Assembly (NCBI GenBank): GCA_964627305.1
Contig: CAZVHP010000001.1
Span: forward strand, 269,792 to 333,791
Source of the DNA: an uncultured Ignavibacteriales bacterium
GTDB lineage: Bacteria > Zixibacteria > MSB-5A5 > GN15 > FEB-12
Length of the DNA: 64,000 bases
Reading direction: 5' to 3'
Shown here piece after piece: positions 22,652 through 43,490 of this stretch (position 1 is the stretch's first letter; each line of letters opens with the position of its first letter). The position numbers and the translations under genes were made by a program. The notes under the pieces were generated by a model. It had not been told where the DNA came from. It ran no database searches and worked only from the letters and a program-made list of their open reading frames with translations.

Positions 22652-24415
22652 TTACATCTTGAGCTGTTTACGGGCGAGTTCGCCATACAACGCAGATCGC
22701 TCCAGCAATTGCTCATGCGTGCCCTGATCGACAATCGTCCCCCTGTCCATTACGATGATCCTGTCAGCGTCGCGAACCGTAGCCAGCCGGTGGGCAATGA
22801 TGATCGATGTCTTTCCCTTAAGTGCCTTGTCGAGCGCCTGCTGAATCAATTCTTCGCTGCGCGTGTCCAGCGATGATGTGGCCTCGTCCAGCAGCATGAT
22901 GGGCGGATCCTTCAGTATGGCCCGCGCCAGGCACACTCGCTGACGTTCCCCACCAGAGAGAGTCACCCCGCGCTCGCCAACTTCGGTCTGGTATCCATCG
23001 GGCAAAGATGCAATGAAATCATGGATGTTCGCGATTCTGGCAGCTCGAATGATCCGGTCCAGGTCGGCATCAGGATCGCCATAGGCGATGTTCTCCCGCA
23101 GCGATGCCTTGAACAGCAGCGGCTCCTGATCGACCAGCCCAATCTTAGATCGCAGATCTTTCACCAGCACTCGTCTGACATCAACGCCGTCTATAAGAAT
23201 GCAACCCCGGTGAGGATCAAAGAAACGCAGGATCAGGTTGATGACCGTTGTCTTGCCGGCCCCGGATGGTCCGACAATGGCAACCCGTTCGCCCGGCGCG
23301 ATTGACAGCGACACATCCCTAAGCCTGAAGCCGTTGTCGTCATACGCAAACGACACTCCTTCAAACACGATATGGCCGCGCACATGTTTGAGGTGCATCG
23401 GGTTCTCATCCTCGGCCACCGCCGGCCCAATGTCAAGATACTCAAAAATGCGATGTACCGAGGCCATCGCAATTTCTACGTCGACATTGATCTGCGCCAG
23501 ATCCTGGATCGGCGAATAGAGATAGCCGACGAGAATGTAGAACGCCAGCAGAGTCCCCAGCAGCACGGTATCGCCGGCCACCAGATAGGCGCCCCAGGCC
23601 AGTACTGCAATCGGTGCCAGCATCGTCACGAACTGCACCAGGTTGATTGCCAGCGACGTGAAGACACTGTTTCTAATGTACAGTCCGGTCAGGGATTTCA
23701 GGACACCGTCGGTAGTCTCTTTCTCGCGACGCTCCTGTGCAAACGCCCGGATCGTCCGAATGGCCGAGAACGACTGCTGGTAGCGCCCGGACAACCGTGC
23801 GATCGTCTCCTGCAGCGCCCGGCTTATCCGATGCAGCGACAGCCCGAAGCGATTGGAGAGGAAGATCGTAATCGGCACCGGGATGAGTACTATCAACGTC
23901 CACTTCCAATTCCACACGAGAAGAACCGTAAGGACACCCGCAACCAGCAGGACGTTCATGACAAACATCAACAGCGTCGATGACAGCAGTTGCTGAACGC
24001 GCTGCACGTCCGAGAGCAGCCGTGACATTATTTCCCCGACCTGATTCCTTTGAAAGAAGCGCAGCGGCACATTGGTAAGATGATCGAACAACTCGCTGCG
24101 CATATCCGCGATGATACTCGCCCCTACCCGACCGGCCAGGTAGTCGCGCACCACGGAGAGCCCCAGATTAGCGAGATAGATTCCGGCCAGAAAAGCGCCG
24201 TAGTAAACCACCGGCGTGGCATTCGGGTTGCCCCCTGATTCTCGCTGCTCGGCCAGATCGGGAATGAGATCATCGATCAGGTACTTCAGGGCCAGCGGCA
24301 TGGCAATCGTGACGACCGTCAAAGCGATCATCGTGGCGAACAGCAACAATTCCAGTTTCCAGTAGGGCCTGAGATAGTACCAGAGCCGCCTACGCGTTTT
24401 GGCGTCGGGTATCAT
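22652..24415 (-). CDS. ABC exporter, fused permease/ATPase (MsbA-like half transporter); no N-terminal peptidase domain
   Basis: Six-TM domain followed by Walker A GPSGAGKTT, signature LSGGERQR and Walker B IMLLDEATS. Start set at ATG 24415 (GGGAG upstream), overlapping the preceding gene by 26 nt. Confidence 0.9.
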   Translation of the reverse strand: MIPDAKTRRRLWYYLRPYWKLELLLFATMIALTVVTIAMPLALKYLIDDLIPDLAEQRESGGNPNATPVVYYGAFLAGIYLANLGLSVVRDYLAGRVGASIIADMRSELFDHLTNVPLRFFQRNQVGEIMSRLLSDVQRVQQLLSSTLLMFVMNVLLVAGVLTVLLVWNWKWTLIVLIPVPITIFLSNRFGLSLHRISRALQETIARLSGRYQQSFSAIRTIRAFAQERREKETTDGVLKSLTGLYIRNSVFTSLAINLVQFVTMLAPIAVLAWGAYLVAGDTVLLGTLLAFYILVGYLYSPIQDLAQINVDVEIAMASVHRIFEYLDIGPAVAEDENPMHLKHVRGHIVFEGVSFAYDDNGFRLRDVSLSIAPGERVAIVGPSGAGKTTVINLILRFFDPHRGCILIDGVDVRRVLVKDLRSKIGLVDQEPLLFKASLRENIAYGDPDADLDRIIRAARIANIHDFIASLPDGYQTEVGERGVTLSGGERQRVCLARAILKDPPIMLLDEATSSLDTRSEELIQQALDKALKGKTSIIIAHRLATVRDADRIIVMDRGTIVDQGTHEQLLERSALYGELARKQLKM

Positions 24416-25823
24416 CCAGCCACTCCCGGAAGTAGTTGCGGGCCGCAAATGCTCTTGCCTCCGGCGCCAGGGCCGTCCGCATTCGTTCCAGCCGCTCGTT
24501 CATCATGCTTTCCCACAGACGAACACCATCCCCGCTGAGGTCCCGCGAGGGGACCACCTGCATGCTTGCTTCGTACTGGTCGGCTGCATCTTTCCACCAG
24601 TCACCAGAGTTGAACTCCGCACCGAACTGTGACTGATACCACTCTCGCTGGTCGTCCACGGCGCATCCCGGAAAGTGCATGTAGCCATGAGGCGCCCATA
24701 TCAGATACGAGGGCGACTCCTCCAGCTCTCGATCCATGAACGCAAAGGTCTCATCCAGCGTCTGCCGCGTTTCACCCGGATGATTGAATATCACATTGGC
24801 TCGATGCATTATGCGATGCCTGGTTAGAAGACGGCTGACATGCCGAAACTGCTGCAGATAGCGCTCCGGGTGACGAGTCTTGTTCATGAGTCGGAGCATA
24901 TCCAGAGAGCCGCTCTCCAGCCCAAACTGAACCTCCACCTTCAGGTCCGCAAGCATGGCGATATCTCTCTCATCAAGATACTCCGGGCGCGTTTCGAAGA
25001 CAATCCAATAGTCATCTCCGCGCTCGCATAGCTTGCGAAGGAACTCCCTGCGCCACGACGGTCTCATGCCAAAGCAGGCATCGGCGATTGCGATTGAGTG
25101 AGGCGTCAAGAAGTCGTACAGGCGTTCCATTTCATCGAGGGCGGCAGCGACCGTGTACGACCGCCAGCGTCGGTCCTTGGTCGGCTCCATGCAGAACGAG
25201 CAGGCAAACGGGCATCCCCGCGAGAGATACAGGCACGGCCCCTTGATGCCCTCCGGTACATGTTCCCGAACGAAATCGGCCAACAGGTCCCACCGATAGG
25301 GAACGAAATGCTCTTCGCCGACTGCCGCTCCCCGGATCACCCGCGTTGCATTCGGTCGCCCCTCCCGGGCGTGTCGCTCGGCCACGTGTTCCAGCGCCAG
25401 CTCACCCTCGCCGCAGACCACAAAATCAAACAGCCCGCTGCCGTTGTCAAATTCGTTTGGCCGGGCTGTGACGTGGTATCCGCCGACGACTATGAGTTTC
25501 TCAGGGAACAGATCCCGACAAATCCGAGCCACAGACAGCGTCGCACGATACGACAGCGATGTCCAGCAGGAAATCGCCAGAATATCAAACTCGTGCGATA
25601 GAAGAAAGCGCCGAACGTGTCGCTCATAGCGGCGGATTTGCGTGGGGCTGTTGGGGCGTCCGATCTGCTGCTCGAAATCGGCATATGACACCCCGAAGCG
25701 CCGGCTCAGGTACGATGCCAGCCAGACCAGCGACGTCTTGAGTTCCGCCCGCTCCATCCACGGTGGGTAGAAAAAGCAGGACGGATGAAGTAAGAGAATG
25801 TGCGGCGTCTTACCGCTGGTCAT
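24390..25823 (-). CDS. B12-binding-domain radical SAM enzyme
   Basis: N-terminal Rossmann-like B12-type domain (ILLLHP...ILAISCWTS...LIVVGGYHVT) followed by YLSRGCPFACSFC (CxxxCxxC). ATG 25823 overlaps the upstream gene stop by 14 nt. Confidence 0.8.
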   Translation of the reverse strand: MTSGKTPHILLLHPSCFFYPPWMERAELKTSLVWLASYLSRRFGVSYADFEQQIGRPNSPTQIRRYERHVRRFLLSHEFDILAISCWTSLSYRATLSVARICRDLFPEKLIVVGGYHVTARPNEFDNGSGLFDFVVCGEGELALEHVAERHAREGRPNATRVIRGAAVGEEHFVPYRWDLLADFVREHVPEGIKGPCLYLSRGCPFACSFCMEPTKDRRWRSYTVAAALDEMERLYDFLTPHSIAIADACFGMRPSWRREFLRKLCERGDDYWIVFETRPEYLDERDIAMLADLKVEVQFGLESGSLDMLRLMNKTRHPERYLQQFRHVSRLLTRHRIMHRANVIFNHPGETRQTLDETFAFMDRELEESPSYLIWAPHGYMHFPGCAVDDQREWYQSQFGAEFNSGDWWKDAADQYEASMQVVPSRDLSGDGVRLWESMMNERLERMRTALAPEARAFAARNYFREWLDDTRRQNA

Positions 25824-26925
25824 CAGGTACGACCACCCGTTCGTGCTCGGCCCTGAACGGTGCCAGAAGTTCGGCCATCTGTTCAGTGATGGTCGGCTCG
25901 ATCCCGCGCTTCCGTTCAATCTGGTAAATGCAGTACGGGTTGTTAGCCCGTTCGCCCGAAGCTGACACCGAGGTCGTCATACAGCCACCCCTGCACAGCG
26001 GCAGGAACTGACAATCGCGGCACTCACCAGAGGCTGTGTCGCGCGTGAACTTACGATTGTACAGGAACCTGGTCGGGTCGTTCCATATCCTGGTGAACGA
26101 TGATTCCCGAATATTGCCCTCGACGAACTCCGGTTGCTGCGACAGACAACCCTTCACATCCCCGTTTGAGCAGATCCCGGCCACGCGCGTGCCGGCATAG
26201 CATCCCAAGTACGGCACATCATCCAGCAGCTTGCTGCCCTTGCAGCCGTAATAGCCGATATTCTCGCCGACATCGATCGGGACCCGTCCGTCTCTCTTGA
26301 GTTCCATGATCTTGTCGATCATCCGTTCGAACAACTCAAGATCCATCACCATGTCCTTCTGCATCCGCCCGGTGACAGTCGTCATCTGGATCCGCCATTC
26401 GCTGGCGCCGACATCAACAAGGTCCTTGTAGATGTGATCGAGGTCGTCAATGTTGACCCGTGAAACCTGCGTGACAGCCTCGAACCGCTGCCCGGCTGCG
26501 CGCAAGTGCCGCATCGCATTGAGTGCTCGCTCGTAGCTTGACTTGTGCTGACGGATATAGTTGTGCACATCGCGGCTGCCGTCGAAACTGACCCCGATAT
26601 TGCCGAAGCCAATGTCCACGAACTGCCGGGCGATGTCCTCAGTCACCATGTAGCCGTTCGTGATCAGAAAAGTGCCTATCCCGCGCTCTTTGCTGCGACG
26701 CGCCAGCACCGGCCAGTCCTTCCGCATCAGCGGTTCCCCGCCGGACAGTGTTAACCCCCGGCAGCCAAGATCCGCCAACTCATCGATCAGTGCCAGCGAC
26801 TCCTCTGTCGTCAGTTCATCACTGCGCGGAACACCGGCAGAAGTCCCGCAATGGATACAACGCATATTGCAGGCATAGGTGATCTCCCATACGACTTGTT
26901 CTGGGAAGAACTTGAACTCACTCAT
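25810..26925 (-). CDS. Radical SAM/SPASM-domain enzyme (no N-terminal extension)
   Basis: CxxxCxxC at residues 19-26 (YACNMRCIHC). C-terminal SPASM-type Cys pattern GCYAGTRVAGICSNGDVKGC ... CRDCQFLPLCRGGC. Its SD GGAAAGGAG lies inside the last codons of the upstream gene. Confidence 0.85.
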   Translation of the reverse strand: MSEFKFFPEQVVWEITYACNMRCIHCGTSAGVPRSDELTTEESLALIDELADLGCRGLTLSGGEPLMRKDWPVLARRSKERGIGTFLITNGYMVTEDIARQFVDIGFGNIGVSFDGSRDVHNYIRQHKSSYERALNAMRHLRAAGQRFEAVTQVSRVNIDDLDHIYKDLVDVGASEWRIQMTTVTGRMQKDMVMDLELFERMIDKIMELKRDGRVPIDVGENIGYYGCKGSKLLDDVPYLGCYAGTRVAGICSNGDVKGCLSQQPEFVEGNIRESSFTRIWNDPTRFLYNRKFTRDTASGECRDCQFLPLCRGGCMTTSVSASGERANNPYCIYQIERKRGIEPTITEQMAELLAPFRAEHERVVVPDDQR

Positions 26926-26928
26926 CTG

Positions 26929-28308
26929 TTACTCCTTTCCGGCGGTTCGCACTTCGGAGGCCTGTTGCGCCTGTTGACGACGCTGCATCTCCTGCTGTCG
27001 CGAAACCGCGATAATTTCCAGCATCGGCTGCAGGTTGTGCTTCCAACCCTCGCACATCTGCTCATCGGACAGCCCTCGGTCCACCCGACGGGCCGGACAG
27101 CCCCCCATGCAGACAGGAAGGACACTGCACTCAAGGCATCGACTGTCTTCAAAGGGGGTATATTCAAAAAGCCGCGTGAAATTCGGATGCAGCAAGTTGA
27201 TTTCATCCATAATCGTTCCCGAGGCTTTGCTCTGATCACCGACATCATTCCAGCAGCGGTAAAGCCACCCCTCGGGATCGACAAGAAACGCGTTGACCGT
27301 CTGCGTCATGCAGAACGTCGAAATCGGCGAGGGGAGTTTCTGGATCACGAAACCCCGCTGGAGCAGTTCATGGTAGTACTGCACCTCAATCTGGGAGAAA
27401 TCCGCCACCTCATAGCAGGCCTCAGCGATATTCGAGCAGACCTGTGACGCCGCCTCTACCATGCCGAAATACACCCCCACTTTGTCCCGCAGCCCCGCTT
27501 CCACAAGCTCGTCGAGCAACTCGCTGATGTCATCGACGGTAAACGACTTGTCGACATTTACACGAACCCCGATCTGCATCTTCCGTTCAACGGCCGCCTG
27601 TACGTTGACGATAATGCGATCAAAGCTGTCACCGCCGTTTCGCAACGGACGCTTCGTATTGTGAAGCCGCGCCGGGCCGTCCAGAGTCACCTGCGCGCTG
27701 AAGACTCGAAGCCCCATCAGTCTGTCCACTGTCTCCGGGGTCAGCAGGTAACCGTTGGTGACAATCGATGAGCTGTAGTCAAATTTGTACTCCTGTCCAA
27801 GATCGAGAAAAGACTCCGTGAGATCCTCGATCACGTCCAGAGCCAGCAGCGGCTCCCCGCCGTACCAGCCAACATCGAGCGCTCCGATTTGTCTTGCCTG
27901 CTTTTCAACAAACTCTATGACGGCCTCGATGACTTTCGGAGACATCTTCGTGGCAGTGTGTTTCTCAAAACAATAGGTACAGGCCATGTTGCAGGCCATT
28001 GTCGGTGCTATGACCAGGCCCAGCCCCGTGCGATTGAATCGGCTGAGGTTATGAGCCAGTTTGAGCCTGGTGATCTCGTCCACATCACCAGTGTGCACGA
28101 AACACCCATACTCGAGCTGCTTCAGTAATTCGCTTTCCGATTCGGTCAGCTCAGGTGAAGGATTCCGCTCGAGCTTGGCTGCCAACTGCTGATACACCTC
28201 CAGGTTCTCCTGTGTCATCAGCGCCACCGCGCCGGATAGGGCATTGTAGGCGAGGACATAACCATCCTGCCACGGGTGGAAATGGTTGTATCGAGATATC
28301 TTAGGCAT
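26929..28308 (-). CDS. Radical SAM/SPASM peptide maturase with about 100-residue N-terminal (RRE-position) extension
   Basis: CxxxCxxC at Cys106/110/113 (MACNMACTYC). N-terminal YNALSGAVALMT segment as in AslB/sactisynthase-type enzymes. C-terminal CLECSVLPVCMGGCPARR SPASM motif. Confidence 0.85.
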   Translation of the reverse strand: MPKISRYNHFHPWQDGYVLAYNALSGAVALMTQENLEVYQQLAAKLERNPSPELTESESELLKQLEYGCFVHTGDVDEITRLKLAHNLSRFNRTGLGLVIAPTMACNMACTYCFEKHTATKMSPKVIEAVIEFVEKQARQIGALDVGWYGGEPLLALDVIEDLTESFLDLGQEYKFDYSSSIVTNGYLLTPETVDRLMGLRVFSAQVTLDGPARLHNTKRPLRNGGDSFDRIIVNVQAAVERKMQIGVRVNVDKSFTVDDISELLDELVEAGLRDKVGVYFGMVEAASQVCSNIAEACYEVADFSQIEVQYYHELLQRGFVIQKLPSPISTFCMTQTVNAFLVDPEGWLYRCWNDVGDQSKASGTIMDEINLLHPNFTRLFEYTPFEDSRCLECSVLPVCMGGCPARRVDRGLSDEQMCEGWKHNLQPMLEIIAVSRQQEMQRRQQAQQASEVRTAGKE

Positions 28309-28875: not shown

Positions 28876-29272
28876 GAGATTCCACGTCGCTCGCCACGAG
28901 TCTCTTACGATCTGAATGCGAGGGCTGTTCGACAGCATCAAAAGGAAACCGCTTGTACAGCACCCGGTGCCCCCTGCTTGCACCAATCAACTGCGATGTT
29001 TCACATCGTCCTGGATGACGTCGAGTTTGGCACCGACAACTCCGGGCAGCGGAACCTGAAGTTTGAGGTTGTTAATCATCACTCCACGGGGTACAATGAT
29101 GTGGACCACTTAGTGAACACGGCACCGGTCGCTCGCTGGCAATGGCCCGATAGCGATACATGAAGCCAGAGGCCTGATCAGCCGAGCGGATTCACGCGCA
29201 CGCTGCAGTCGTGAGTGCCCCTCCGCTCTGCTCCGGCGCGTGCAAACCGCAAGAGAAGGAGGCACAATTGCG

Positions 29273-30253
29273 ATGCTGAGCCGGAAGGATGCTCGAGTTG
29301 TCGAGCGACCAACCCGCGAAAGGCTGGCTCTTCGCACGTTCACGGCCGTGCTCTGTCTGCTCGTGACGGGGGATATCTTGGCTCAAGACACATTCGAGCC
29401 ACCCGCCTCTGGCTTTGAGACCGGCTGGGAGCGGTCCGAGCAACTGCTTACCTTCATCGGGCATGATCTCTACGCGCATATCAACGGCGGCGCCGAGTTG
29501 TATCACGAGTTCGGATTCGACCGGCTCCATGTTCAGTATTACCGGAAGGCTGACCAGGAACTGACCCTTGAGGTGTACCTGATGACCGACCCCAACGCTG
29601 CCCTCGGACTCTACCTGCTGAAGGCGGCCCAGGAGAGTCCCGTTGACGGCATCCGCGAACGTAACAGCGGCGATGCTTCGCAGATTGTCGTCGTCAAGGG
29701 AAGTGCTTTTGTCAGAATCAACAACTACACTTTCACCGACTCCCTGTTGCCGACGATGGTCAATCTGGCCAACACGGTGACCGTGAATCTTCCCGATGAG
29801 CCGGCTCCAGCCTTGCTCAGCCGTTTGCCCCTCACAGGTCTCCAGCACGGGACTGAGCGCATCATTCGCGGTCCCTACGCACTGGCCCAGGAAGCGAATC
29901 TCGGTCAGGGCGACATCCTGCAACTGGCTGGCCGCATTTGGGGGGTGCTCGGACGATACACTGATCAGCATGACTCGACCTTCACGCTTATCGAAGTCCG
30001 CTATCCCGATCCGGAGCGCGCAGGCGCCGCATTCAATCATCTGATGCACAACCTTAATGAACTGCAGACCATCATAGAGAAAGAGCGCCTCTCATTCACT
30101 TTCCGGGACCATCGCGGCCGATTCGGTGAGGTGACGGTCCGGGACACGATAATGGTATTGAACCTGGATATGTACAGCCGTGACAGCCATCCGGCTGCCG
30201 GCGATGCTGATACCACGACCGCCTCTGGTCCTTCTGATGCTCCGAAACCCTGA
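29273..30253 (+). CDS. Secreted hypothetical protein
   Basis: AAGGAGG 10 nt upstream of ATG 29273. Signal-peptide-like N terminus (LALRTFTAVLCLLVTGDILAQD) and high GC3. No motif recognised. Confidence 0.6.
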   Translation: MLSRKDARVVERPTRERLALRTFTAVLCLLVTGDILAQDTFEPPASGFETGWERSEQLLTFIGHDLYAHINGGAELYHEFGFDRLHVQYYRKADQELTLEVYLMTDPNAALGLYLLKAAQESPVDGIRERNSGDASQIVVVKGSAFVRINNYTFTDSLLPTMVNLANTVTVNLPDEPAPALLSRLPLTGLQHGTERIIRGPYALAQEANLGQGDILQLAGRIWGVLGRYTDQHDSTFTLIEVRYPDPERAGAAFNHLMHNLNELQTIIEKERLSFTFRDHRGRFGEVTVRDTIMVLNLDMYSRDSHPAAGDADTTTASGPSDAPKP

Positions 30254-32401: not shown

Positions 32402-33583
32402 CTATCGCCTCACCAACAAATCGAACAGCCACTGACCGAGCCCGAACAGCACCAGAATGCCTCCCTCAAGTCGACTCAGCCTGCGCCCAGTGTACATGAA
32501 GATGAGTATGACCACCAGGATCAGGCACATAACTGCCATGCTCAAGGCCGCCTGGTGGCTGACAATGACTGAGGCCGCGATCGGCGGCTGCAGAAGCACC
32601 CCTGCAATGCCCAGCACTCCAAATATGTTGAAGACCGAACTGCCCAGAAGATTGCCGACCGACATATCGGCTGATCCATGCCGCGCCGCCGCCAGCGAGA
32701 CCACCAGTTCCGGCGCTGAAGTGCCGGCAGCGACTATCGTGATACCGATAACATACTCCGGAATACTGAAGTAGTAGGCGAACCACAGGGCGCCGAAACC
32801 CTCCAGACCTCGCGATGCCGGCTCGGCATACCCGATCAGGTACTGACACCCGCCAACAACCATCACCAACCCCACTATCAGGTAGACCGCCTCACCAATC
32901 CAGTGACCGTCCGACGGCTGTTGAGTCGCTGGTCTTCCGCCTGTGTCCCGACGGGCAATGTAAAGCAGCCAGATGTAAACTGCCAGGCCCAGCAGCAGAG
33001 CCAGGCCCTCGATGAAATCCAGCCGCATGTTAAGCAGCGTTCCCAGGACCGGCTCGGTGCTGCCGTCGGCCAGTCTCGTTGCTCCCGGAAGATGTCCCAA
33101 TGCCACAAGCGCCAGCACCGTCCCCAACAGCAGTATCGGGCCGTCGCGCTTCACCAGGGGACGAGCGATATGCACACCTCCGGCCGTAAACAGCGCCACC
33201 GCCCCGAGGATGAAATACATGTTGAAGATATTCGACCCGATGACGTTCGCCACCGTGATGTCCCCGCTCCCGCGCAGCCCGGCCACAACCGAGGCCGCCA
33301 TCTCCGGAGCACTCGTACCGAAAGCCACCACCGACAAACCTATCACCAGTTCCGATATGCCCAGCCGACGGGCAAGCCCAGCGGCACCGTCAACCACCCA
33401 GTCAGCACCGCGACTGACCAGCCAGATCAGGATCGCGAAGGAAGCCACTCTGAGCACGATTGCCAGAGCGCCCTCGGTCTCGATCGTACCGATGCCCGCA
33501 TGCACAACCGCGAGGAGTACCCCCAGGGCGGCCGGAACTGCAAACTGCCTGTGCCACGGATTACGCATACGTTGACGTAACAA
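32402..33583 (-). CDS. CaCA-family sodium/calcium (cation) antiporter, YrbG-like
   Basis: Two alpha-repeat signatures, AFGTSAPEMAASV and AAGTSAPELVVSL, in a polytopic membrane protein. Start is uncertain (TTG 33583 or ATG 33568). Confidence 0.85.
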   Translation of the reverse strand: MLRQRMRNPWHRQFAVPAALGVLLAVVHAGIGTIETEGALAIVLRVASFAILIWLVSRGADWVVDGAAGLARRLGISELVIGLSVVAFGTSAPEMAASVVAGLRGSGDITVANVIGSNIFNMYFILGAVALFTAGGVHIARPLVKRDGPILLLGTVLALVALGHLPGATRLADGSTEPVLGTLLNMRLDFIEGLALLLGLAVYIWLLYIARRDTGGRPATQQPSDGHWIGEAVYLIVGLVMVVGGCQYLIGYAEPASRGLEGFGALWFAYYFSIPEYVIGITIVAAGTSAPELVVSLAAARHGSADMSVGNLLGSSVFNIFGVLGIAGVLLQPPIAASVIVSHQAALSMAVMCLILVVILIFMYTGRRLSRLEGGILVLFGLGQWLFDLLVRR

Positions 33584-33605
33584 TCACGCCGATCACGGGT
33601 TCAGG

Positions 33606-33656
33606 CAAACAAAAAACGGCGGTAGTTGACACCAGTTGTGTGTCACTTGCCGCCGT
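33606..33656 (-). terminator. Rho-independent terminator immediately upstream of the antiporter genes
   Basis: On the minus strand: ACGGCGGCAAGTGACAC-ACAACTG-GTGTCAACTACCGCCGT (15-bp stem with one mismatch and two wobbles) followed by TTTTTTGTTT. It ends about 25-40 nt before the antiporter start. Confidence 0.7.
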
Positions 33657-33789
33657 CATCAGATGCCGGCGCCTACTTATCGGATGATGCACTCTTGTCA
33701 TGTTATGTTGCCACTATGGATCACTTGCTCTTGTTCGATGGATGACCTACTCAGAAGTCCAAAGAGAGGGAAGCTGCTGTGCGGATTTC

Positions 33790-34068
33790 TTAGCTCAGCA
33801 GCTTGCCCACTCCTCGATACAGCCTGCCCGAGACCGGCGCACTGACCAGCAGGACTGCCGCGGCAAGGTAGCAGACCAGCGCCACCAGTGCCACCGATTC
33901 AGCCAGCGAGCCGAAATAGCTCTCCAGCACCTCGCCCGCGTAATCCCACACGCGGCCGCGATAGGCATAAACCACCAGCCCGGTCTCCAGATGGACCAGA
34001 CCGACCGCCGCCAGCAGCACTTTCAGCACGTGCTCCAGCAGCTTGTTTGACTTGAAGTAATGGTACAT
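33790..34068 (-). CDS. Small (92-aa) integral membrane protein, unknown function
   Basis: Very high GC3. Two to three hydrophobic helices (LLAAVGLVHL..., VALVALVCYLAAAVLLV). Purine-rich GAGAGGGAAG upstream of the ATG. Confidence 0.6.
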   Translation of the reverse strand: MYHYFKSNKLLEHVLKVLLAAVGLVHLETGLVVYAYRGRVWDYAGEVLESYFGSLAESVALVALVCYLAAAVLLVSAPVSGRLYRGVGKLLS

Positions 34069-34294
34069 TGCTTCCCTCTCTTCGGAATCACTGATTCCTT
34101 CTCCGTCCGATTACCCGGGTATTTGCCCGGATCAGCATAACTCGGCCGTTTCGGACCCGCTACGTCTGCGGTTCCGCGATTACTGTCGAATGTGTGACTG
34201 GGAACGAACTGGGGGTGAGAGAGAAGCCGGACTGACCTGGAGTCGGTCAGAAACCTCGGTTGATTTGGCATATGCTGCCCGAGGCCTCCGATCC

Positions 34295-34423
34295 CTACAT
34301 TCGGCTGTCTGTCACCTCGCTCGATTCGTTCACCCACGCGATCTTGCGATAGCTGTTCATCCCCGAGGGGACAATGAGCTGCCGGCAAAATCGCCTCTTG
34401 GCTTGTCCTGGCTGTGACACCAT
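34295..34423 (-). CDS. 42-codon ORF with strong SD (not in the ORF track), unknown function
   Basis: AAGGAGG plus a 5-nt spacer before ATG 34423. Translation is MVSQPGQAKRRFCRQLIVPSGMNSYRKIAWVNESSEVTDSRM with stop TAG at 34295-34297. 31 of 42 codons end in G/C. Confidence 0.45.
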   Translation of the reverse strand: MVSQPGQAKRRFCRQLIVPSGMNSYRKIAWVNESSEVTDSRM

Positions 34424-34473
34424 GGTGTCCTCCTTTTGCGAACCGTTTGAGGTTATCGTTGACTCGTGAACAC

Positions 34474-34654
34474 AAAAAAACCCGAGACCTGGGTCCCGGG
34501 GAAAAACTGCGGATAAGCATCCGGTGGGATAGTCCAGATCTATAACATGCGCCTGCCCTTCAGAAGCTGGCCGTTGTACGTCTTACAAAGTTCAAAAATC
34601 ATATCAGTCTCTATCGGTTCCTACACTGAAGGCTTTAGTCGTCTGTTCTGGTTG
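34474..34654 (-). ncRNA. About 180-nt structured RNA bounded by a promoter and an intrinsic terminator: either an independent sRNA (rod-like, 6S-reminiscent) or a terminator-type cis-regulatory leader
   Basis: The promoter is listed separately. Long-range complementarity between the two halves: GGUGG/CCACC, CCAGA/UCUGG, GCCUUCAG/CUGAAGGGC. CGGAU-GCUU-AUCCG hairpin. Terminator CCCGGGAC-CCAG-GUCUCGGG followed by U7. Confidence 0.45.
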
Positions 34655-34660
34655 GCCACC

Positions 34661-34689
34661 AGAATATGCTGCCCTCTACGTTCTGTCAA
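34661..34689 (-). promoter_or_regulatory. Sigma70-like promoter driving the structured RNA
   Basis: On the minus strand: TTGACA (34689-34684), 17-nt spacer, TATTCT (34666-34661). Confidence 0.55.
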
Positions 34690-34896
34690 GCACTAAGTTG
34701 CCTGCTCTTCATTTTTAATGTGTTACGAGTTATCCACTTTTGCAGGTGGTGGCTGATATCTTTGAGCGGTTGGCCGAAGTGCTGTCCTCTTTGGGCCCCC
34801 CCAGCAATGAACAACTTCTCGTTGAACTCGGCCCAGCGATCTGCTACATTGCTGCCAGTGTTCACAAAGCATCCTCGATCTCAGGAGAACCGTCCC

Positions 34897-37800
34897 ATGT
34901 CTCGTTCTTTCCCGGCTGCCGCTTTCTTTTTCGCACTGCTGTTACCATTGCTGGTGTCATCGTCGCCGAGTCCGGCCGACCAACCCGGGCCGCAGGGCTA
35001 TTATCGGTATCCTGCCATTGGCGGAGGTTTCATAGTGTTTACCGCCGAGGGCGACCTCTGGCGGGTGCCAATCGAAGGCGGTCTGGCCCGGCGCCTGACC
35101 ACCCATCATGGATGGGAGTATCGCCCCGTTGTCTCACCCGACGGAACACAAGTGGCCTTTACTGCCCAATACGAGGGTACCAGCGATGTCTATGTCATGC
35201 CGCTTGCCGGCGGTTTACCACGGCGCCTGACTTGGGAGAACGAGCAAAGCTATGTCGCCTCATGGATCGACAACAAGATCCTGCTGTATGCCACCTCGCA
35301 CTTCTCTACCCTGCCGAGCTATCAACTGGTCAGGCTCAACCTGACCACCGGTGAGCGGGTACCCGTCCCCCTGGCGCAGGCCGCCGATGGTGTCCATGGT
35401 GACGCCGAAGAGCTGTTCTTCGTCCGTCTCCCGCACCAGGGGAGCCACGCCCGAAACTACCCCGGTGGTACGGTACAGAACCTCTGGAAGTTCACTCCCG
35501 ATATGGCCGACGCCGTAAGACTGCATCCCGACTTCGAAGGTACCAGCCGCAGCCCCATGTGGTGGCAGGGAAGAGTGTACTTCGCCACTGACCGTGACCG
35601 GACCATAAACCTCTGGTCGATGCTCCCGGATGGCACCGACCTCAGGCAGCACACGTTCCATGAAGGATGGGACGTGAAATCTCCCGCTTTGTCTGATGGT
35701 ATGATTGTCTATCAGCTCGGGGCCGACCTGTACCTGTACGAGATCGCCACCGATCAGACGGCCATGGTCGAGATTACTCTCGCCTCCGATTTCGACCAGA
35801 TGCGCGAGAAGTGGATCGACAAGCCGATGGATTATCTGACCTCTGCCCATTTGTCCGGTGACGGCAGCCACGTTGTGCTTACTGCCCGCGGGCAGGTGTT
35901 CGTGCGACCGGTGAAGGCCGGCCGAATGCGGGAAGTCACCCGCAATGACGGCGTGCGCTACCGCAGCGCCCGGTTTCTGCATGGCAACGACACCCTGATT
36001 GCCCTCTCGGACGAAAGCGGCGAGGTGGAGTTCTGGCAACTGCTCGCCGACGGCACCGGAGTCCCTCTGCAGCTTACCGACAATGCCGAGGTACTGCGCT
36101 TCGATGGCCTTCCGTCGCCCGATGGGAATCTCATCGCCTACACCGACAAGAACAACAGGCTATGGGTCTATGAACGTGACCGTGATCGGCACCGGCTGGT
36201 TGACAGCGGTCGCTACGGCGCCGCCCATGACCCCACCTGGGCACCGGACAGCCGCCATCTGGCCTGGGTCGGCGAGGCCGAAAACGACTTCTCCCGGATA
36301 TGGATCTACGCGGTTGTTGATGATGAGCGCTTTGCCGTCACCAGCGATCACTATGAATCCTATGACCCCGCTTTCAGCCCCGATGGCAAGTGGCTGTACT
36401 TCATATCACAGCGCAATCTGGATGCGATCGCCGGCAATGTCTGGGGGCCGCGTGCAGAGCAGCCGTTCCTATACGCTCCGGCCAAACTATATCAGCTGGC
36501 CCTGTCCAAAGACGCCCGGTCGCCATTCGAGTTGAAGGATGAGCTTACCCTCAAGACTGAAGCGACAGCGAAGACCGACAAAGATGACAAGAAGGATCAG
36601 AAGCCGGCTGTCGTGGTCAGCATCGATCGCGATTCACTACCGTGGCGCCTGTATGAACTCCCGGTCGACGGCGGCAACTACACTGACCTGAATGTAACCG
36701 ATAAGGCTGTCTACTACCGCTCCTGGCCCGCTGTCGGCAGCCGCAAATACACGCTCAATGTCCTCGAAATCAGCGATGATTCTCCCAAACCGGCCGAATT
36801 CGCGAGCAACATTTCGGAATACGAGCTGTCAGGCGATCTGTCGAAGATACTCCTGAGGTCCGGCGATAACCTCTATGTCGTCGACGCCTCCGTCAGCCCT
36901 CCTGCCAGTCTCGATAAAGGCAGGCTGGACCTGACCTCGTGGACGTTCCCGCTCAACCCGCGCGAGGAGTGGCGTCAGATGTTCCTTGAGGCGTGGCGTC
37001 TCGAACGGGATTACTTCTACGATACTGGTATGCACGGTGTGGACTGGACAGCCATCCGCGACAAGTATCTTCCTCTGGTCGACCGCGTCACCGATCGCTG
37101 GGAGCTTAGCGACCTGCTGGCCCACATGATCAGCGAGTTGTCGGCCCTGCATATGACAGTCGGCGGCGGTGATCACCGCACTGCCGAGGAGAAAGTCACC
37201 ATCGCCTCGCTTGGCGCACTGCTGATACGCGATGTTCGCGGCGGTGGCTACCGCGTTGACCACATCTACCGCGGTGATCCCGAACGTCCGGAGACACTCA
37301 GCCCGCTGGCCAAACCCGGAGTCGGAATCACCGAGGGGGATATGCTGGTCGGTATCAATGGGCAGGACGTCCTGAAGGCATCGCATATCAACGAGCTCAT
37401 TCGCAACAGGGTCGGTCAACAGGTGCTCGTGGAATACAAACCGCATAATCGGTCCGGCACCGAAAAGGCCATTGTCGTTCCCGTCTCAGGAGCAGCCGAG
37501 CGCAATCTTCGCTACCTCGACTGGGAGATCACGCGCCGCCGGATGGTCGACAGCCTCAGCGACGGCCAGATCGGCTATGTCCACATTCGCGCTATGGGGC
37601 GCGGCAACTACGCTGAGTGGGCACGCGACTTCTTCCCCGTCTGGAATCGCCCCGGGCTCATTATCGATGTCCGCCACAACCAGGGCGGCAATATCGACAG
37701 TTGGATTATCGGATCGCTGCTGCGTAAGCCGTTCCTGTGGTGGCAGCCCCGCATAGGGCAGGCCGACCCCAACTTCCAGTACGGTTTCGCCGGCCACATG

Positions 37801-38355: not shown

Positions 38356-38952
38356 ATGAAGCAGCTCATCGTTCTGGTTCTCATAGGAGCACTGCTGACT
38401 GCCTGTGGCGGCGGCAAGCAGGTGACCCGGCTGGAGGCCGACACCGTCACCGATCTGTCCGGTCGCTGGAATGACACCGATGCCCGGCTGGTGGCCGAGG
38501 AGATGATCGGCGATGCCCTGACTCATCGCTGGCTCACGGACTACATCGAACAGCAGGGTTCCCGCCCGGTGGTCACGGTTGGCATCATTCGCAACATGAC
38601 CAGCGAGCACATTAATATGGAGGTGTTCACGACCGAGTTTGAACGCCAGCTCATCAATTCCGGCAAGGTCCGGTTCGTGGCCAGCAAGGATGTCCGCGCC
38701 GAACTGCGCGCCGAACGCCAGGAACAGCAGGAATTCGCAACCGCCGAGACCGCCAAGAGAATGCGCGCTGAAACCGGAGCCGATTTCATGCTCCAGGGGC
38801 ACGTCAAGACCATAACCGATACCGAGGGTGGGAAGTCAGTCGTCTATTACAAGACCGATTTTGAGCTGGTCAACATCGAGTCCATGGAAAAGGTCTGGAT
38901 CGGTACCAAGGAGATCAAAAAGGGTATCTCGCAGGGCAGGACGAAGTGGTAG
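38356..38952 (+). CDS. LpoB-like (COG3417) lipoprotein
   Basis: Lipobox LLTAC. DLSGRWNDTDARLVAEEMI and later segments resemble the penicillin-binding-protein activator LpoB family. Confidence 0.6.
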   Translation: MKQLIVLVLIGALLTACGGGKQVTRLEADTVTDLSGRWNDTDARLVAEEMIGDALTHRWLTDYIEQQGSRPVVTVGIIRNMTSEHINMEVFTTEFERQLINSGKVRFVASKDVRAELRAERQEQQEFATAETAKRMRAETGADFMLQGHVKTITDTEGGKSVVYYKTDFELVNIESMEKVWIGTKEIKKGISQGRTKW

Positions 38953-38972: not shown

Positions 38973-40379
38973 ATGTTTCCTGCCGGTAGCTGGCGCCGTG
39001 GGTTGTGTCTCGCGGTGCTCGCCCTTGTGGTGAGCGCGTGCGGTTCGATGTCCACTCGTCGCGGCTTCTACGAGCCGATCACGCAGCGGGTTGTGCAGCA
39101 CGAGTTCGATTCCGCCCTCATGCTGCTGGAAAGCGCCCGCGAGTCGGGGAAGTATGGACAGAAAGATCGCCTGCTTTACTTCCTCGATGCCGGCTTCCTC
39201 AACCATTATGCTCAGGACTACGAGGCCTCCAACGAGAGACTCGAACTGGCCGAGGCCGCTGCCGAGGAGCTGTTCACCAAAAGCGTCTCACGCGCAATTG
39301 CGTCTTTGGCCCTCAACGACAACGTACTGGAGTACGCCGGCGAGGATTACGAAGTTCTCTACGCCAATCTTATCAAGGCTGTCAACTACATCTGTCTGAA
39401 CCAGTTCGATGGCGCCTTTGTCGAGGTCCGGCGGGCGAACCTCAAACTCGATCAGCTCGAAGACAAATACGGCGATGCCTTCGCGCGCATGCAGCGCTCC
39501 GCCCGCGAGAGGGAAGAGGGAAGCATCTCGCTCCAGATGGAACCGGAGAAGATACACTACCACAACAATGCCTTCGCTCGCTGGCTCAGCATGCATATGT
39601 ACGCCGCTGATGGGCTGTACGACGACGCGCGGATCGATCACGAGGCTTTGCTTGATGCCTTCACCACCCAGTCCCACATCTACACCTTTCCGCCGCCCGA
39701 TGTGAAGTATCGCTCTGAAGCCGGCGGCATTCTCAGTGTCGTCGGTCTGGCCGGTCTTGGTCCGACTCGCGAAGCCACGACCGTGCGCCTGAAAACCGAT
39801 TCCGAGCTTGACCTCGTCTGGGTTCTCGGAACCGATACTCATGGCAATGAGGTCGCGCTCTTCGGACCCTTTTCTGCGAAGATATCCGATGACTTCTTCT
39901 TCAAGTTCTCTTTACCGCGCATGGAGCCACGCCGTTCCGCAATCACCCGTATTGAGGTGGACGTCAACGGCCGGTTGCTGGGACGCCTCGAGCTTATCGA
40001 GAACGTCAACGACGTCGCCCAGGAAGTCTTCAAGGCGAAGCGCTCCATGATCATCTTCGAATCCGTTGCGCGGGCGCTGGCCAAGGGGATCGTGGCACAC
40101 AAACAGAAGGACAAGGTGGATGACGGCGGTCTGGTGGGCTGGCTGAAGAAGACCGCCATCGATGCCGCTGTCGAACTGACCGAGAGCGCTGACCTGCGCT
40201 CCGCTCAGTACCTGCCGGGGCGGGTTTTCGTCGGTGATTTCGAGCTGGAGCCGGGAACATACGACATCACGATTCGCTACCTGACGGCCGGCGGAGGCGT
40301 GGCCGCCGTGGAGCACTTCCACAACTATGAAGTCCGGCCGGGTGCGTTCAACCTCGTCCACGCCTTCTCCCCACAGTAG
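38973..40379 (+). CDS. Hypothetical lipoprotein
   Basis: GAGGGGGTG upstream of the ATG. Lipobox LVVSAC. 468 aa. It directly follows the LpoB-like gene, and no motif was recognised. Confidence 0.55.
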   Translation: MFPAGSWRRGLCLAVLALVVSACGSMSTRRGFYEPITQRVVQHEFDSALMLLESARESGKYGQKDRLLYFLDAGFLNHYAQDYEASNERLELAEAAAEELFTKSVSRAIASLALNDNVLEYAGEDYEVLYANLIKAVNYICLNQFDGAFVEVRRANLKLDQLEDKYGDAFARMQRSAREREEGSISLQMEPEKIHYHNNAFARWLSMHMYAADGLYDDARIDHEALLDAFTTQSHIYTFPPPDVKYRSEAGGILSVVGLAGLGPTREATTVRLKTDSELDLVWVLGTDTHGNEVALFGPFSAKISDDFFFKFSLPRMEPRRSAITRIEVDVNGRLLGRLELIENVNDVAQEVFKAKRSMIIFESVARALAKGIVAHKQKDKVDDGGLVGWLKKTAIDAAVELTESADLRSAQYLPGRVFVGDFELEPGTYDITIRYLTAGGGVAAVEHFHNYEVRPGAFNLVHAFSPQ

Positions 40380-40485: not shown

Positions 40486-41838
40486 TCAGAAGTCAGTCTT
40501 GCCGGAGAACCTGAACGACTTCAGATGAACCGCCGGCGCAATAGCGCAGCCAATACTGCTCCACCAGGAATCGACCAGCTCCCGCTCTTTTGATATGGCT
40601 ACAGCAGTTCCGAAAGCCCGCGGCATGGCATCGGTGAATCGAAGATTCTTGATGCCGCACACGATTTCTCCGTTGCGAATGAGGAAGGTGCCATCGCGCG
40701 TCATGCCGGTCAACACCCCCCGGGGCTGATCGATGAAGCCGTTGATATAGTGAAAGCGCGTCACCAGGATGCCCTTCTTGACGCTTCTGATCATCTCCTC
40801 GCGTTTTGCCGTGCCCGCCCTCATGCACAGATTCAGCCCGATACCGCCCTCGCCCATTTGATCGGCTGTGTACGCATGGCCGGTCGGTTTGCGACCTTCT
40901 TTCGCCGCCGACAGCCGGTCCCACACCGTGTCGGTGGCCACTCCCTTGTCGATGTACATCACCTTCCGGCGGGGTACACCTTCGAAGTCGAACGGCAGAC
41001 CGATTCCTCCAGGCTCGAACGCGTTGTCATACCAGCTCACCAGCTCCGAGGTGATCTTCTTGCCGAACTTGCCGGACAGCAGCGACATCTTCTGCAGAAC
41101 CGGTTTGTTGCGAAGGCCCACGTAGTTGAGCCACTCCAGCAGTGAGGCTACCGCCACCGGTTCCAGAATGACCTCGTACTCGCCGGGGTCAATACTCTGC
41201 GGGTGCACCGACCTGCGGCACTTCTCAGCGGCCACTGCGGCGAGGCCCTTCGTATCCAGACTGCCGAGGGCAGGCGACAACCCGGCACCGTACCCCGAGG
41301 AATCATCCGACATGGCGATGAAATTCACCGATGCCGATGTGCCGGCATGGTATGCCTCGACGCCATTGCTGTTGACCACTGCCGTCTCGGTCACTGTCGT
41401 CGATAGCGCACCGGCCGCTCCCTGCTTCAGCCGGTCAGTGATCTTGATCATACTCTTCACTGCTCGCGCCCGCTGCATGGGCGATGCCTTGGCCGTCGCC
41501 TCATCAAAGTTATCCAGCATCTTGTACTTTGCCGGCTTCGGTAACCCCGGCCAGTCAGGGTTCTCCGGCCGCATTTTGGCAATGCTGCAGGCATTGCGCA
41601 CTGTCTGCACAAGCTCCGCCTTGTTCAGCGAGTTGGTGACTGCGACCCCGATCCTGTTGCCAATCACACAGCGCACGATCACCCGCTGGTTCGTTTCGGC
41701 GACATTCTGGTGGATGGCCGAATTGGCAAACCGCGTCAGTCCGGAATCCTGGGCGAAGCAGGTCACTTCGGTCTGCTCTGCCTCCGATGCATCCAGTACG
41801 CTTCGCAGGCTGTTCAGTAGCTTCTCACGCCCAATCAT
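40486..41838 (-). CDS. pmbA: PmbA/TldE-family metallopeptidase subunit
   Basis: 450-aa TldD/PmbA-fold protein lacking the HExxxH motif. Its start overlaps the stop of the upstream tldD gene by 4 nt. Confidence 0.85.
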   Translation of the reverse strand: MIGREKLLNSLRSVLDASEAEQTEVTCFAQDSGLTRFANSAIHQNVAETNQRVIVRCVIGNRIGVAVTNSLNKAELVQTVRNACSIAKMRPENPDWPGLPKPAKYKMLDNFDEATAKASPMQRARAVKSMIKITDRLKQGAAGALSTTVTETAVVNSNGVEAYHAGTSASVNFIAMSDDSSGYGAGLSPALGSLDTKGLAAVAAEKCRRSVHPQSIDPGEYEVILEPVAVASLLEWLNYVGLRNKPVLQKMSLLSGKFGKKITSELVSWYDNAFEPGGIGLPFDFEGVPRRKVMYIDKGVATDTVWDRLSAAKEGRKPTGHAYTADQMGEGGIGLNLCMRAGTAKREEMIRSVKKGILVTRFHYINGFIDQPRGVLTGMTRDGTFLIRNGEIVCGIKNLRFTDAMPRAFGTAVAISKERELVDSWWSSIGCAIAPAVHLKSFRFSGKTDF

Positions 41839-43277
41839 TTGCTCACCCCCACCCTGATGTTGCGAAATCTACTGGGAGCGGCGCCGTGAGCCACGTGGGC
41901 TACCTGCATCGGTTCCCCCTTCCCGCAGTTCGGAATTGCCCACACCCGCCAGTGGTCCTGGTCGCAGATCGCATCGCACGTATTCCAGAACTCCGGTGTG
42001 ATGCCGGTGTAGACCGGGTTCTTGTACATCTGGCCCAATTTGCCTCCCCTGATCTGCCACGCACACTCGCAGCCAAACTGGAAATTCAGCCGCTTGTCGT
42101 CGATTGACCAGCTCTTGTTCAGATCGAACAGGATCCCGTCCTCGGTATCTGCAATGAGATCGTCAAGTCTCCAGCTCCCCGGCTCCAGGTTGACATTGGT
42201 CATGCGGATCAGAGGTATCCGATTCCACCCGTCAGCCCGCATAGTGCCGTTGGAACGCTGCCTGATCACCGGCGCCGTTTCGCGACTTGTCAGGTAACCT
42301 ACGAAAAGGCCGTCCTTGACTATCGGCGCCCGCTGTGCCTTGACACCCTCATCATCGTAGCCAAACGTTCCCAGGCCTCCTTCCACGGTCGCGTCGGCAT
42401 TGATACTCACCAACTCCGAACCGTACCGCAGCTTGTTCATCTTGTCGAGCGTCAGGAACGATCCGCCCGCCAGCGATATCTCGGTGCCGAGCACTCGGTC
42501 CAGCTCAATGGGATGACCACACGACTCATGAATCTGAAGCGCCATCATGGGTCCGCACAGAATGATGGTGGTATCCGTATCGGGGCACGGCTTGGCCTTC
42601 AGCAATTCGATCGCCTCTTCGCGTACCCGCTCTGCGTTCTCCACCAGGCCAAGCTCCCGGATGAACTCCCAGCCGCGTGTGGCGTAATCGCCGCCGTGCG
42701 AGTTGGGAAATGAACGCTTCTGCGCCTGACCATCGCCAACGGCAATAGCGTGATAGCCGCCGCCGGACTCCACTATGTCCTGCTCGATCTGGGCGCCCTC
42801 GCTGGACACAAACAGCTTGTTGGTCTTGAAGAAATTGAGCGACACCTCGGCCGTCTTGATCTTCTTCGATCGGGTCAGGCGCTCAGTGACGGTTTGCATC
42901 AGGCTGAGTTTCTCATCGAAAGACACCTCGAACGGGTCGGCTGCGCACGGCGACACATAGTGATCAGTGAAGGCCTCCTGCTCGGCCAGTTGCACCGGTT
43001 CTCGCCGCGTCAGCGCCGAGGCCTTCGCGATCTGCAACGCCCGGCTGGCCGCCTTGTTCATCTCCGCTTTGGAGGTTCCTGCCGTTCCGGCAAACCCCCA
43101 GCAACCCTGATGGAGTACCCTGACTCCAATCCCCACATCGATATCCCGACCAAGCTGGTCAACCTTGCCGTTGCTCATCCTGATGGACTCGCGCTGACGG
43201 CTGACGTATCGGGCATCGGCGTAATCGACTCCCTTGACCTTCAGGGCATCGATACAATCCCGCAATCGCTGTTTCAT
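41835..43277 (-). CDS. tldD: TldD-family metallopeptidase
   Basis: 480-aa ORF with the zinc motif HESCGHPIELD and GSFLT typical of TldD. Confidence 0.88.
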   Translation of the reverse strand: MKQRLRDCIDALKVKGVDYADARYVSRQRESIRMSNGKVDQLGRDIDVGIGVRVLHQGCWGFAGTAGTSKAEMNKAASRALQIAKASALTRREPVQLAEQEAFTDHYVSPCAADPFEVSFDEKLSLMQTVTERLTRSKKIKTAEVSLNFFKTNKLFVSSEGAQIEQDIVESGGGYHAIAVGDGQAQKRSFPNSHGGDYATRGWEFIRELGLVENAERVREEAIELLKAKPCPDTDTTIILCGPMMALQIHESCGHPIELDRVLGTEISLAGGSFLTLDKMNKLRYGSELVSINADATVEGGLGTFGYDDEGVKAQRAPIVKDGLFVGYLTSRETAPVIRQRSNGTMRADGWNRIPLIRMTNVNLEPGSWRLDDLIADTEDGILFDLNKSWSIDDKRLNFQFGCECAWQIRGGKLGQMYKNPVYTGITPEFWNTCDAICDQDHWRVWAIPNCGKGEPMQVAHVAHGAAPSRFRNIRVGVSK

Positions 43278-43490
43278 ACGACCTCTCTTCAGATAACAAT
43301 GACAGGTCCCACACCATCAGCTCACAATGTAGACCGCTCCAGGCCCGCTGACAAGTGCAATACGCTAAATCCTTTGCTAATGAACTTTGCAGTGCTATAT
43401 TGCCCTCAGAAACATACGCCGGTGTCCGGTGTCCGGTCTGTGGTCACCGAATCGGCCCCAAAACCCCCGTACTTGCGCAAGCCGAGGAAT

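Follow-up and report, generated by a model that had tools for sequence, protein, structure and literature searches.

A probable small RNA gene at the head of a clade-specific cassette in an uncultured Ignavibacteriales bacterium

The 64,000-nt stretch of DNA analysed here (hereafter the window), part of contig CAZVHP010000001.1 from an uncultured Ignavibacteriales bacterium, carries on its minus strand, between positions 34689 and 34474, a promoter-like sequence followed at a short distance by a strong intrinsic terminator. The question raised by this locus is whether these elements delimit the gene of a free-standing small RNA (sRNA), or the leader of the genes that follow in the same orientation, the expression of which would then be decided at the terminator. 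An earlier sequence-only reading had entertained both possibilities, likening the putative RNA in the first case to 6S RNA and in the second to a riboswitch or attenuator acting on a downstream open reading frame (ORF) and on the cation antiporter genes beyond it. From the comparison with relatives we conclude that the locus is very probably a real sRNA gene, having a promoter and a terminator of its own and a product of about 180 nt. As to function, the account that we prefer, and hold tentatively, is that of a clade-specific sRNA acting through its sequence, with read-through of the terminator feeding the gene of a small, translationally locked membrane protein.

Conservation of the promoter and the terminator

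The promoter (34661-34689, minus strand) is a sigma70-like site comprising the -35 hexamer TTGACA (34689-34684), a 17-nt spacer and the -10 hexamer TATTCT (34666-34661); it scores 10/12 and is the sole site of this kind in 33500-35500. By the standard spacing between the -10 hexamer and +1, transcription would start near 34654, and the transcript bounded by the promoter and the terminator would be a small RNA of ~180 nt (34474-34654, minus). The terminator (34474-34500, minus) consists of CCCGGGAC-CCAG-GUCUCGGG, an 8-bp G+C-rich stem with a 4-nt loop, followed by seven T residues (U7 in the RNA), and its hairpin has a computed energy of -13.8 kcal/mol. Just 5' of it there is a smaller hairpin, CGGAU-GCUU-AUCCG (CGGAUGCUUAUCCG; 34510-34523, minus). 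These three elements had been pointed out in the sequence-only reading and are all present as described, as is the ORF led by a Shine-Dalgarno sequence (SD) 51 nt past the U-run, the ATG of which is found at 34423. Motif counts alone are close to chance, with one promoter-like site against 0.8 expected and five terminator-like sites against 2.0 +/- 1.7 expected, and because of this the case for a transcription unit rests on comparison with relatives.

The comparison set comprises six distinct variants, the window included, all belonging to one narrow clade. One of them (L001), from a metagenome-assembled genome labelled Ignavibacteriales, was the sole close locus recovered by a genome scan with the neighbouring tricorn protease, to which its own protein is 78% identical in amino acid sequence; the remaining tricorn relatives from that scan are at most 55% identical and none has the element. 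The other loci (L043-L044 and L047-L052) come from exact-protein look-ups, and a search with the N-terminus of the tricorn protein returned only relatives of at most 59% identity. Among 5.8 billion proteins, the two ORFs downstream of the RNA, of 42 codons and of 92 amino acids (the latter hereafter ORF92), form two 90%-identity clusters each, confined to this clade. An invariant 19-mer gave just two chance matches in a metagenome collection, two scans of viral contigs found nothing, and a search with nhmmer recovered one RNA copy per locus, with no paralogue in the window or in the other fetched loci. On the evidence of these genome, metagenome, viral and protein searches the distribution is restricted to one clade, a narrow range typical of bacterial small RNAs.

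When each variant is aligned with the window sequence, identity amounts to 97-100% in the promoter (28-29 of its 29 positions), to 95-98% in the body of the RNA, and to 100% in the terminator, where 26/26 positions are the same in all six variants. The stem of the smaller 3' hairpin is likewise invariant, while its loop, owing to indels of 1-4 nt, ranges from 4 to 8 nt in length. These values are to be set against 49-73% in the adjoining unconstrained segments. The flanks of the promoter are 57-71% identical, with 65-71% upstream of the -35 hexamer and 57-64% in the 12-13 nt that follow the -10 hexamer (both in the distant variants); the patch after the 42-codon ORF is 49-73% identical, and even the third codon positions of ORF92 retain 81-87%. 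Within the region conservation is highest in the RNA, which exceeds both the 42-codon ORF (71-90%) and ORF92, and across 700 nt no sigma70-like site other than its promoter is shared by all six variants.

The course of this conservation along the DNA is informative in itself. Setting in ~45 nt upstream of the -10 box, it is interrupted at the predicted start by a lapse of 12-13 nt, which extends from that box to about +8, and is then restored. The lapse corresponds to a variable discriminator and start region (34649-34660, minus), in which the changes are uncompensated. A promoter with a transcript behind it would be expected to give such a profile. Since the body is 95-98% identical against 49-73% in unconstrained neighbouring DNA, the comparison argues that the transcription unit is real and under strong selection: a promoter and a terminator surround a non-coding stretch that is conserved above the neutral level.

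The body of the RNA: folds and reading frames

How could such an RNA work? The sequence-only reading had proposed that its 5' and 3' halves pair over long range, and the minimum free energy (MFE) fold of the window copy does include the helices GGUGG/CCACC, CCAGA/UCUGG and GCCUUCAG/CUGAAGGGC. The proposal fared badly against the relatives. Fold stability equals that of dinucleotide shuffles, with z -0.04 for 34660-34472 and +0.66 for the body (34654-34520), so that the conserved stretch of some 130 nt (34520-34648, minus) has little predicted structure. In GGUGG/CCACC, 3/5 pairs are broken in three of the six variants, the A-U pair of CCAGA/UCUGG is found in the window only, and every substitution falling in these two helices disrupts a pair; GCCUUCAG/CUGAAGGGC loses one pair in three of the six. 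Moreover, GGUGG (34660-34656) directly follows the -10 hexamer and, because standard promoter geometry puts the start near 34654, probably lies upstream of it and is not transcribed. The six-variant alignment holds zero compensatory changes in the proposed helices, and RNAalifold returns a different set of local hairpins, again with zero covariation, both results having almost no power with six close variants at 95-98% identity. Nor are the single-sequence MFE folds alike between variants. Among the helices of the RNA, then, only the two 3' hairpins are supported; the body fold is unsupported rather than excluded, because this level of identity leaves covariation so little power. That a rod-like fold drawn on one sequence failed against only five relatives is a general caution.

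The same results bear on the likeness to 6S RNA, according to which the transcript would be a rod with a central bubble that binds the RNA polymerase holoenzyme. The length of ~180 nt is similar, and in the window copy alone the MFE fold shows paired halves with an AU-rich middle. Against this, no 6S model (RF00013 or its relatives such as 6S-Flavo) matches even at E<=10, the closing helices are not conserved and one of them lies upstream of the likely start, the folding energy does not exceed that of shuffles and the other variants fold differently; furthermore, the 3' end of the RNA is taken up by a terminator hairpin and forms no pairs with the 5' end. We regard the 6S-like reading as already largely refuted and scarcely credible. 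Known families offer no other home. With Rfam 15 at gathering thresholds the whole window gives no match at the RNA locus, and one tRNA elsewhere. Relaxed scans (E<=10 and E<=5, on 34300-34800 and 33550-34480) yield, in 34300-34800 at E<=10, only terminator-driven chance matches to unrelated sRNA families (E 0.2-9) and, in the downstream segment, no riboswitch or leader family. The Mn2+, Mg2+, Na+, Li+, c-di-AMP, guanidine and fluoride classes, which had been put forward as candidates together with 6S, are all without a match, and the notion of a riboswitch of known class thus finds no support at E<=10.

The locus also carries reading frames on the RNA strand. A 165-aa ORF called across it is open in the window only and comprises 1-75 codons in the five other variants, truncated by the 1-4 nt indels in the hairpin loop and linker; it has no Pfam or PADLOC family match. 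It had been dismissed on the ground that it would have to read through the terminator, and the frameshifts in all five relatives confirm that it is not a gene, such that the call of the gene-finding program at this locus is spurious. Six-frame counts of synonymous and non-synonymous changes across the RNA reveal no coding frame. With its motifs conserved and no coding frame apparent, the proposed unannotated non-coding unit with its own promoter and strong terminator stands.

A remaining candidate is a 20-codon ORF, MIFELCKTYNGQLLKGRRML (34540-34602, minus), on the strength of which the RNA might be a small mRNA or a dual-function RNA encoding a 20-aa product, possibly a leader peptide. The ORF occurs in all six variants, and of its six variable codons four differ by synonymous third-position changes and two by non-synonymous ones; the bias, however, is not significant (approximately p = 0.1 by a binomial estimate). 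In addition, no SD precedes this ORF, whereas nearby genes carry strong ones, its codon 20 becomes a stop in two lineages, and the non-coding flanks are conserved at least as well as the ORF itself. Its coding status is accordingly doubtful, and we consider the peptide reading quite unlikely. A ribosome-mediated attenuator was rejected on similar grounds: the leader ORF has neither an SD nor a repeated codon class, there is no run of regulatory codons and there is no 2:3 antiterminator.

Conservation at almost all positions of the body, together with the lack of conserved long-range helices, makes it most likely that the body works by sequence-specific recognition, be it of other RNAs through pairing or of a protein that it binds, and not as a fold for a ligand or as an RNA-polymerase-mimicking rod. 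Two invariant pyrimidine motifs in the 130-nt body, GCCUUC and AUCCCACC, could pair with ribosome-binding sites.

Read-through and the downstream cassette

What lies beyond the terminator? By the pattern of its conservation the RNA appears as the first module of a clade-specific cassette of ~0.95 kb (34725-33758), which comprises, in order, the RNA, the terminator, the 42-codon ORF, a structured 5' untranslated region (UTR), the 92-aa ORFan and an anti-SD sequence in the 3' UTR, where it ends. The terminator is followed by a conserved spacer (34424-34473, minus; 86-100% identity) that has no promoter-like site but contains the SD AAAGGAGG, with the palindrome GACACC-AU-GGUGUC around the start codon. 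The 42-codon ORF (34295-34423, minus) keeps its length and stop; its coding status is equivocal, since substitutions are spread evenly over the codon positions (13, 11, 13). Its ATG is replaced by ATA in L044, the ATG and the strong SD being kept in the five other variants, and there is no Pfam, PHROG or PADLOC match. It may be a regulatory upstream ORF, translated for the sake of regulation rather than of its product.

ORF92 (33790-34068, minus), with two hydrophobic segments, is the first gene downstream of the RNA with a clear coding signature (substitutions by codon position [6,1,14], [8,2,12] and [8,4,18]), and it too has no family in Pfam, PHROG or PADLOC. Its 5' UTR (34062-34236, minus) has a multi-branched fold more stable than shuffles (z -2.19), closed by an 11-bp helix between GCUUCUCUCUC (34227-34217) and GAGAGGGAAGC (34080-34070), which buries the SD. 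Among four variants the consensus fold of -56 kcal/mol contains one compensatory change, of a G-C to an A-U pair, together with several wobble-compatible changes. At the other end of the gene, a hairpin across the stop codon and the anti-SD of the 3' UTR (33758-33807, minus) mark the end of the conserved cassette. This second anti-SD, GCUUCCCUCUCUUUGGA (33774-33758), is complementary at 16/17 positions (94%) to the SD region 34086-34070, and a 12-nt core of it is retained in all variants. It could form a long-distance lock that joins the 5' end with the 3' end, as in the hok and aapA mRNAs, and the translation of ORF92 is predicted to be locked by both the upstream and the 3' UTR anti-SD.

Directly after the 3' anti-SD (~33757) synteny breaks. 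One downstream sequence is common to the window, L048 and L049, leading in the window (and in L048, as far as its contig reaches) into a gene for a CaCA-type Na+/Ca2+ exchanger; the other is common to L047, L050, L051, L052, L001 and L044. In the latter arrangement an ORFan gene is called in L047 and L050-L052, of 314 aa in L047 (2857-3801) and cut at the contig end in the others; the L047 protein matches nothing in Pfam, PHROG or PADLOC. L047 and L048 possess an identical RNA variant and differ in their downstream arrangement. In the window the exchanger gene (33583-32402, minus) is followed by one for a Kef-type antiporter with TrkA domains (32398-30383, minus). Since the conserved block starts with the RNA, takes in ORF92 and finishes at the 3' anti-SD, with synteny broken thereafter, the antiporters fall outside the conserved unit. 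They are probably a separate transcription unit, and a terminator-like GGCGG...CCGCC with a T-run between ORF92 and the CaCA gene (33617-33634, minus) adds evidence. The proposal that the locus controls the cation antiporters thus finds no support: in 4/6 distinct variants (L001, L044, L047 and L050) these genes are not syntenic, other sequence following ORF92 instead, and the hairpin and the anti-SD close the block before them.

Some repeats within the cassette deserve mention. A consistent spacing of direct repeats raised the possibility of a ~390-nt tandem duplication, but the DNA alignment is marginal (z 1.4-3.7, short matches) and there is no protein similarity; this reading was not adopted. 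The 11-mer GGGCAGCATAT occurs on the minus strand exactly twice in the 64 kb, at 34664-34674, in the spacer and -10 box of the RNA promoter, and at 34270-34280, in the variable patch after the 42-codon ORF, the second copy not being conserved in the other clade. GGGCAG is found four times on the minus strand of the 1.2-kb region, compared with 40 in the whole window.

A serious rival to the account that we prefer, although in our judgement a less probable one, is that the RNA is a cis-acting leader, the body of which senses a metabolite, an ion, a protein or a ribosome and so decides on read-through into the 42-codon ORF and ORF92. In the 590 nt upstream of ORF92 there is no other conserved sigma70-like promoter on either strand, and the leader has no conserved antisense promoter. 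Because no other conserved promoter is seen there, read-through of the terminator may be the sole route to the ORF92 mRNA, and it is this that keeps the cis-regulatory reading alive. Furthermore, identity amounts to 86-100% in the 49 nt that separate the terminator from the SD, the RNA is always accompanied by the 42-codon ORF and ORF92, the leader surpasses the genes that follow it in conservation, as is often the case with riboswitch aptamers, and the rest of the leader, with its SD-masking helix, can be called demonstrably regulatory RNA. A switch, on the other hand, would call for an antiterminator overlapping the terminator, and in the variants examined none is conserved. The best pairing of upstream segments with the 5' arm of the terminator reaches -8 to -9 kcal/mol against -13.8 kcal/mol for the terminator hairpin, and the best competing partner differs between variants, such that the terminator is apparently constitutive. 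Equally, the leader has a body no more stable than shuffles and without conserved helices (six close variants, with little power) and matches no Rfam riboswitch or leader family at E<=10. The gene that it would regulate is a clade-specific ORFan rather than a conserved transporter or enzyme, the link to the antiporters is not syntenic, and the downstream genes have no one recurrent, coherent function. The earlier proposal of a cis-acting leader with a controlling terminator therefore survives in its general form, ORF92 having no conserved promoter of its own, and fails in the form of an antiterminator switch.

We return, then, to the sequence-acting sRNA. A sigma70-type promoter would fire near 34654 and most transcripts would stop at the strong intrinsic terminator at 34474, giving an RNA of ~180 nt composed of a largely unstructured, sequence-constrained body of 130 nt and a 3' module of one small hairpin, the terminator hairpin and a U-tail. 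The body would recognise its partners by sequence. Polymerases reading through the terminator would supply the ORF92 mRNA, as apparently its sole source, the translation of which would be locked separately by the two anti-SD elements. Several points weigh against this account. Local scans within the 64-kb window identified no target, and the best duplex between the RNA and the downstream mRNA (-26.1 against a shuffled mean of -27.7) is not above chance; a window-wide scan with duplexfold was uninformative, since it allows huge loops. Conservation extends over the whole 130-nt body, more widely than in pairing sRNAs, which typically have a short seed. A cis-acting leader would account equally well for the missing downstream promoter, and, with six close variants lacking covariation power, the RNA may yet be structured. 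In the window clade the RNA does form better duplexes with two segments upstream of the tricorn gene than shuffles do. Both segments are situated upstream of the tricorn promoter and lack conservation, being absent or insignificant in L001, L050 and L044, and they were rejected as a conserved target.

We know of no described regulatory RNAs in the lineage of the closest record, the metagenome-assembled genome mentioned above, and the locus adds to this poorly known uncultured lineage a well-delimited sRNA gene that appears to be strongly selected. The cassette in turn would be a compact, testable model of layered RNA control over a small membrane protein, with the terminator, a possible upstream ORF and double masking of the SD as its layers.

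Neighbouring genes and comparison with known systems

On the other side of the RNA promoter, and oriented divergently from the RNA, the gene for the tricorn-type protease begins at 34897 (plus strand). A candidate promoter for it, TTGAAC-17-TACATT (34822-34850, plus), scores 8/12, has a counterpart TTGAAC-17-TAAATT at the same position in L001, and lies ~130 bp from the RNA promoter, pointing the opposite way. Between the two promoters the window clade alone has a 43-nt insertion (34742-34784), ~25 nt of which are complementary, on the plus strand, to the RNA at 34580-34556 (-27.9 kcal/mol, with 0-1 of 30-40 shuffles as good); the insertion is outside any predicted transcript. In L047 (1914-2097) and L048 (1354-1537), which represent a lineage that over most of the region otherwise shares 97-100% identity with the window, the RNA bears a cluster of four private changes (C>A, U>A, A>G and C>A, equivalent to 34549-34532 of the window). 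Three of the four bring the RNA to match the opposite-strand -10 region of the tricorn promoter, taking the duplex from -23.9 to -31.3 kcal/mol; the cluster may reflect short-tract gene conversion or coincidence.

Further afield, the tricorn gene is flanked by genes for an LpoB-like lipoprotein (38356-38952, plus) and a TldD/PmbA-like metalloprotease pair (40486-43277, minus). On the minus strand at 22652-28308, two radical SAM/SPASM peptide maturases, a B12-binding radical SAM enzyme and an MsbA-like ABC exporter make up what looks like a RiPP biosynthesis locus. Several neighbours, at 29192-30049, 38973-40379 and 42750-45647, are without a family match.

Among known systems, the layout of the cassette first recalls toxin-antitoxin loci, and it is conceivable, if improbable, that an abundant RNA counteracts a harmful small membrane protein or its mRNA, with the terminator limiting transcription of the latter. 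In type III loci (toxIN, cptIN, tenpIN) a promoter is followed by a non-coding RNA, an intrinsic terminator that sets the RNA-to-mRNA ratio, and a promoterless gene (PMC3401426), and here likewise a terminator stands between the RNA and a gene lacking a conserved promoter of its own. In type I toxin mRNAs (hok, aapA) an upstream anti-SD and a 5'-3' long-distance interaction mask the SD (PMC6733600), a hallmark to which the mRNA of ORF92, although not the RNA, conforms with its upstream anti-SD helix and its anti-SD in the 3' UTR. The cassette is moreover a compact, clade-specific ORFan unit, the end of which coincides exactly with the break in synteny. The differences, however, are considerable. 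Unlike type III antitoxins, the RNA has no tandem repeats (Tandem Repeats Finder, minimum score 30, 34000-34750), a direct-repeat search detecting none within it either. ORF92, a two-helix membrane ORFan, is not a ToxN, CptN or TenpN endoribonuclease and matches no other defence or toxin family in PADLOC or Pfam, and ~400 nt including the 42-codon ORF separate it from the terminator. Unlike type I systems, the locus has neither an antisense promoter nor an inverted repeat joining the RNA to 33700-34474, and the complementarity of the RNA to the ORF92 mRNA is not above chance. Typical type I toxins are shorter than 92 aa, and the toxicity of ORF92 is a conjecture. By analogy with both classes, the cassette (34725-33758) might even be a new RNA-controlled, toxin-like module combining a type III layout with type I style locking by two anti-SD elements, a notion that we rate as slightly more doubtful still; were it true, neither antisense pairing nor repeats would be needed for the 130-nt RNA to counteract the protein or its expression.

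Another comparison is with sRNAs derived from leaders by premature termination, such as SreA and rnTrpL. Here as there, a short terminated 5' transcript belongs to the same unit as coding genes and contains a small ORF, and functions both in cis and in trans are possible; unlike these cases, the present RNA has no recognisable aptamer, antiterminator or regulatory codons.

Closest, in our view, are the ordinary trans-acting sRNAs, exemplified by the enterobacterial Hfq-type RNAs with a Rho-independent terminator and by RsaE/RoxS with their C-rich motifs. To our knowledge no RNA chaperone has been described for the present lineage. Two features set the locus apart from such RNAs, namely that conservation is not confined to a short seed but covers the 130-nt body in full, and that a gene without a visible promoter lies directly downstream in the same orientation. 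The likenesses comprise a promoter of its own, a size in the range of roughly 100-200 nt, a location in the intergenic space of two divergent genes, a hairpin inside the RNA, a U-rich linker that varies, a terminator ending in a long U-tail, a genus-level distribution and invariant pyrimidine motifs (GCCUUC, UCCC) able to pair with ribosome-binding sites. By its own promoter, internal hairpin, variable linker and long-U-tail terminator, the anatomy of the RNA would thus best fit that of an ordinary lineage-specific sRNA, the attached cassette being more unusual than the RNA itself.

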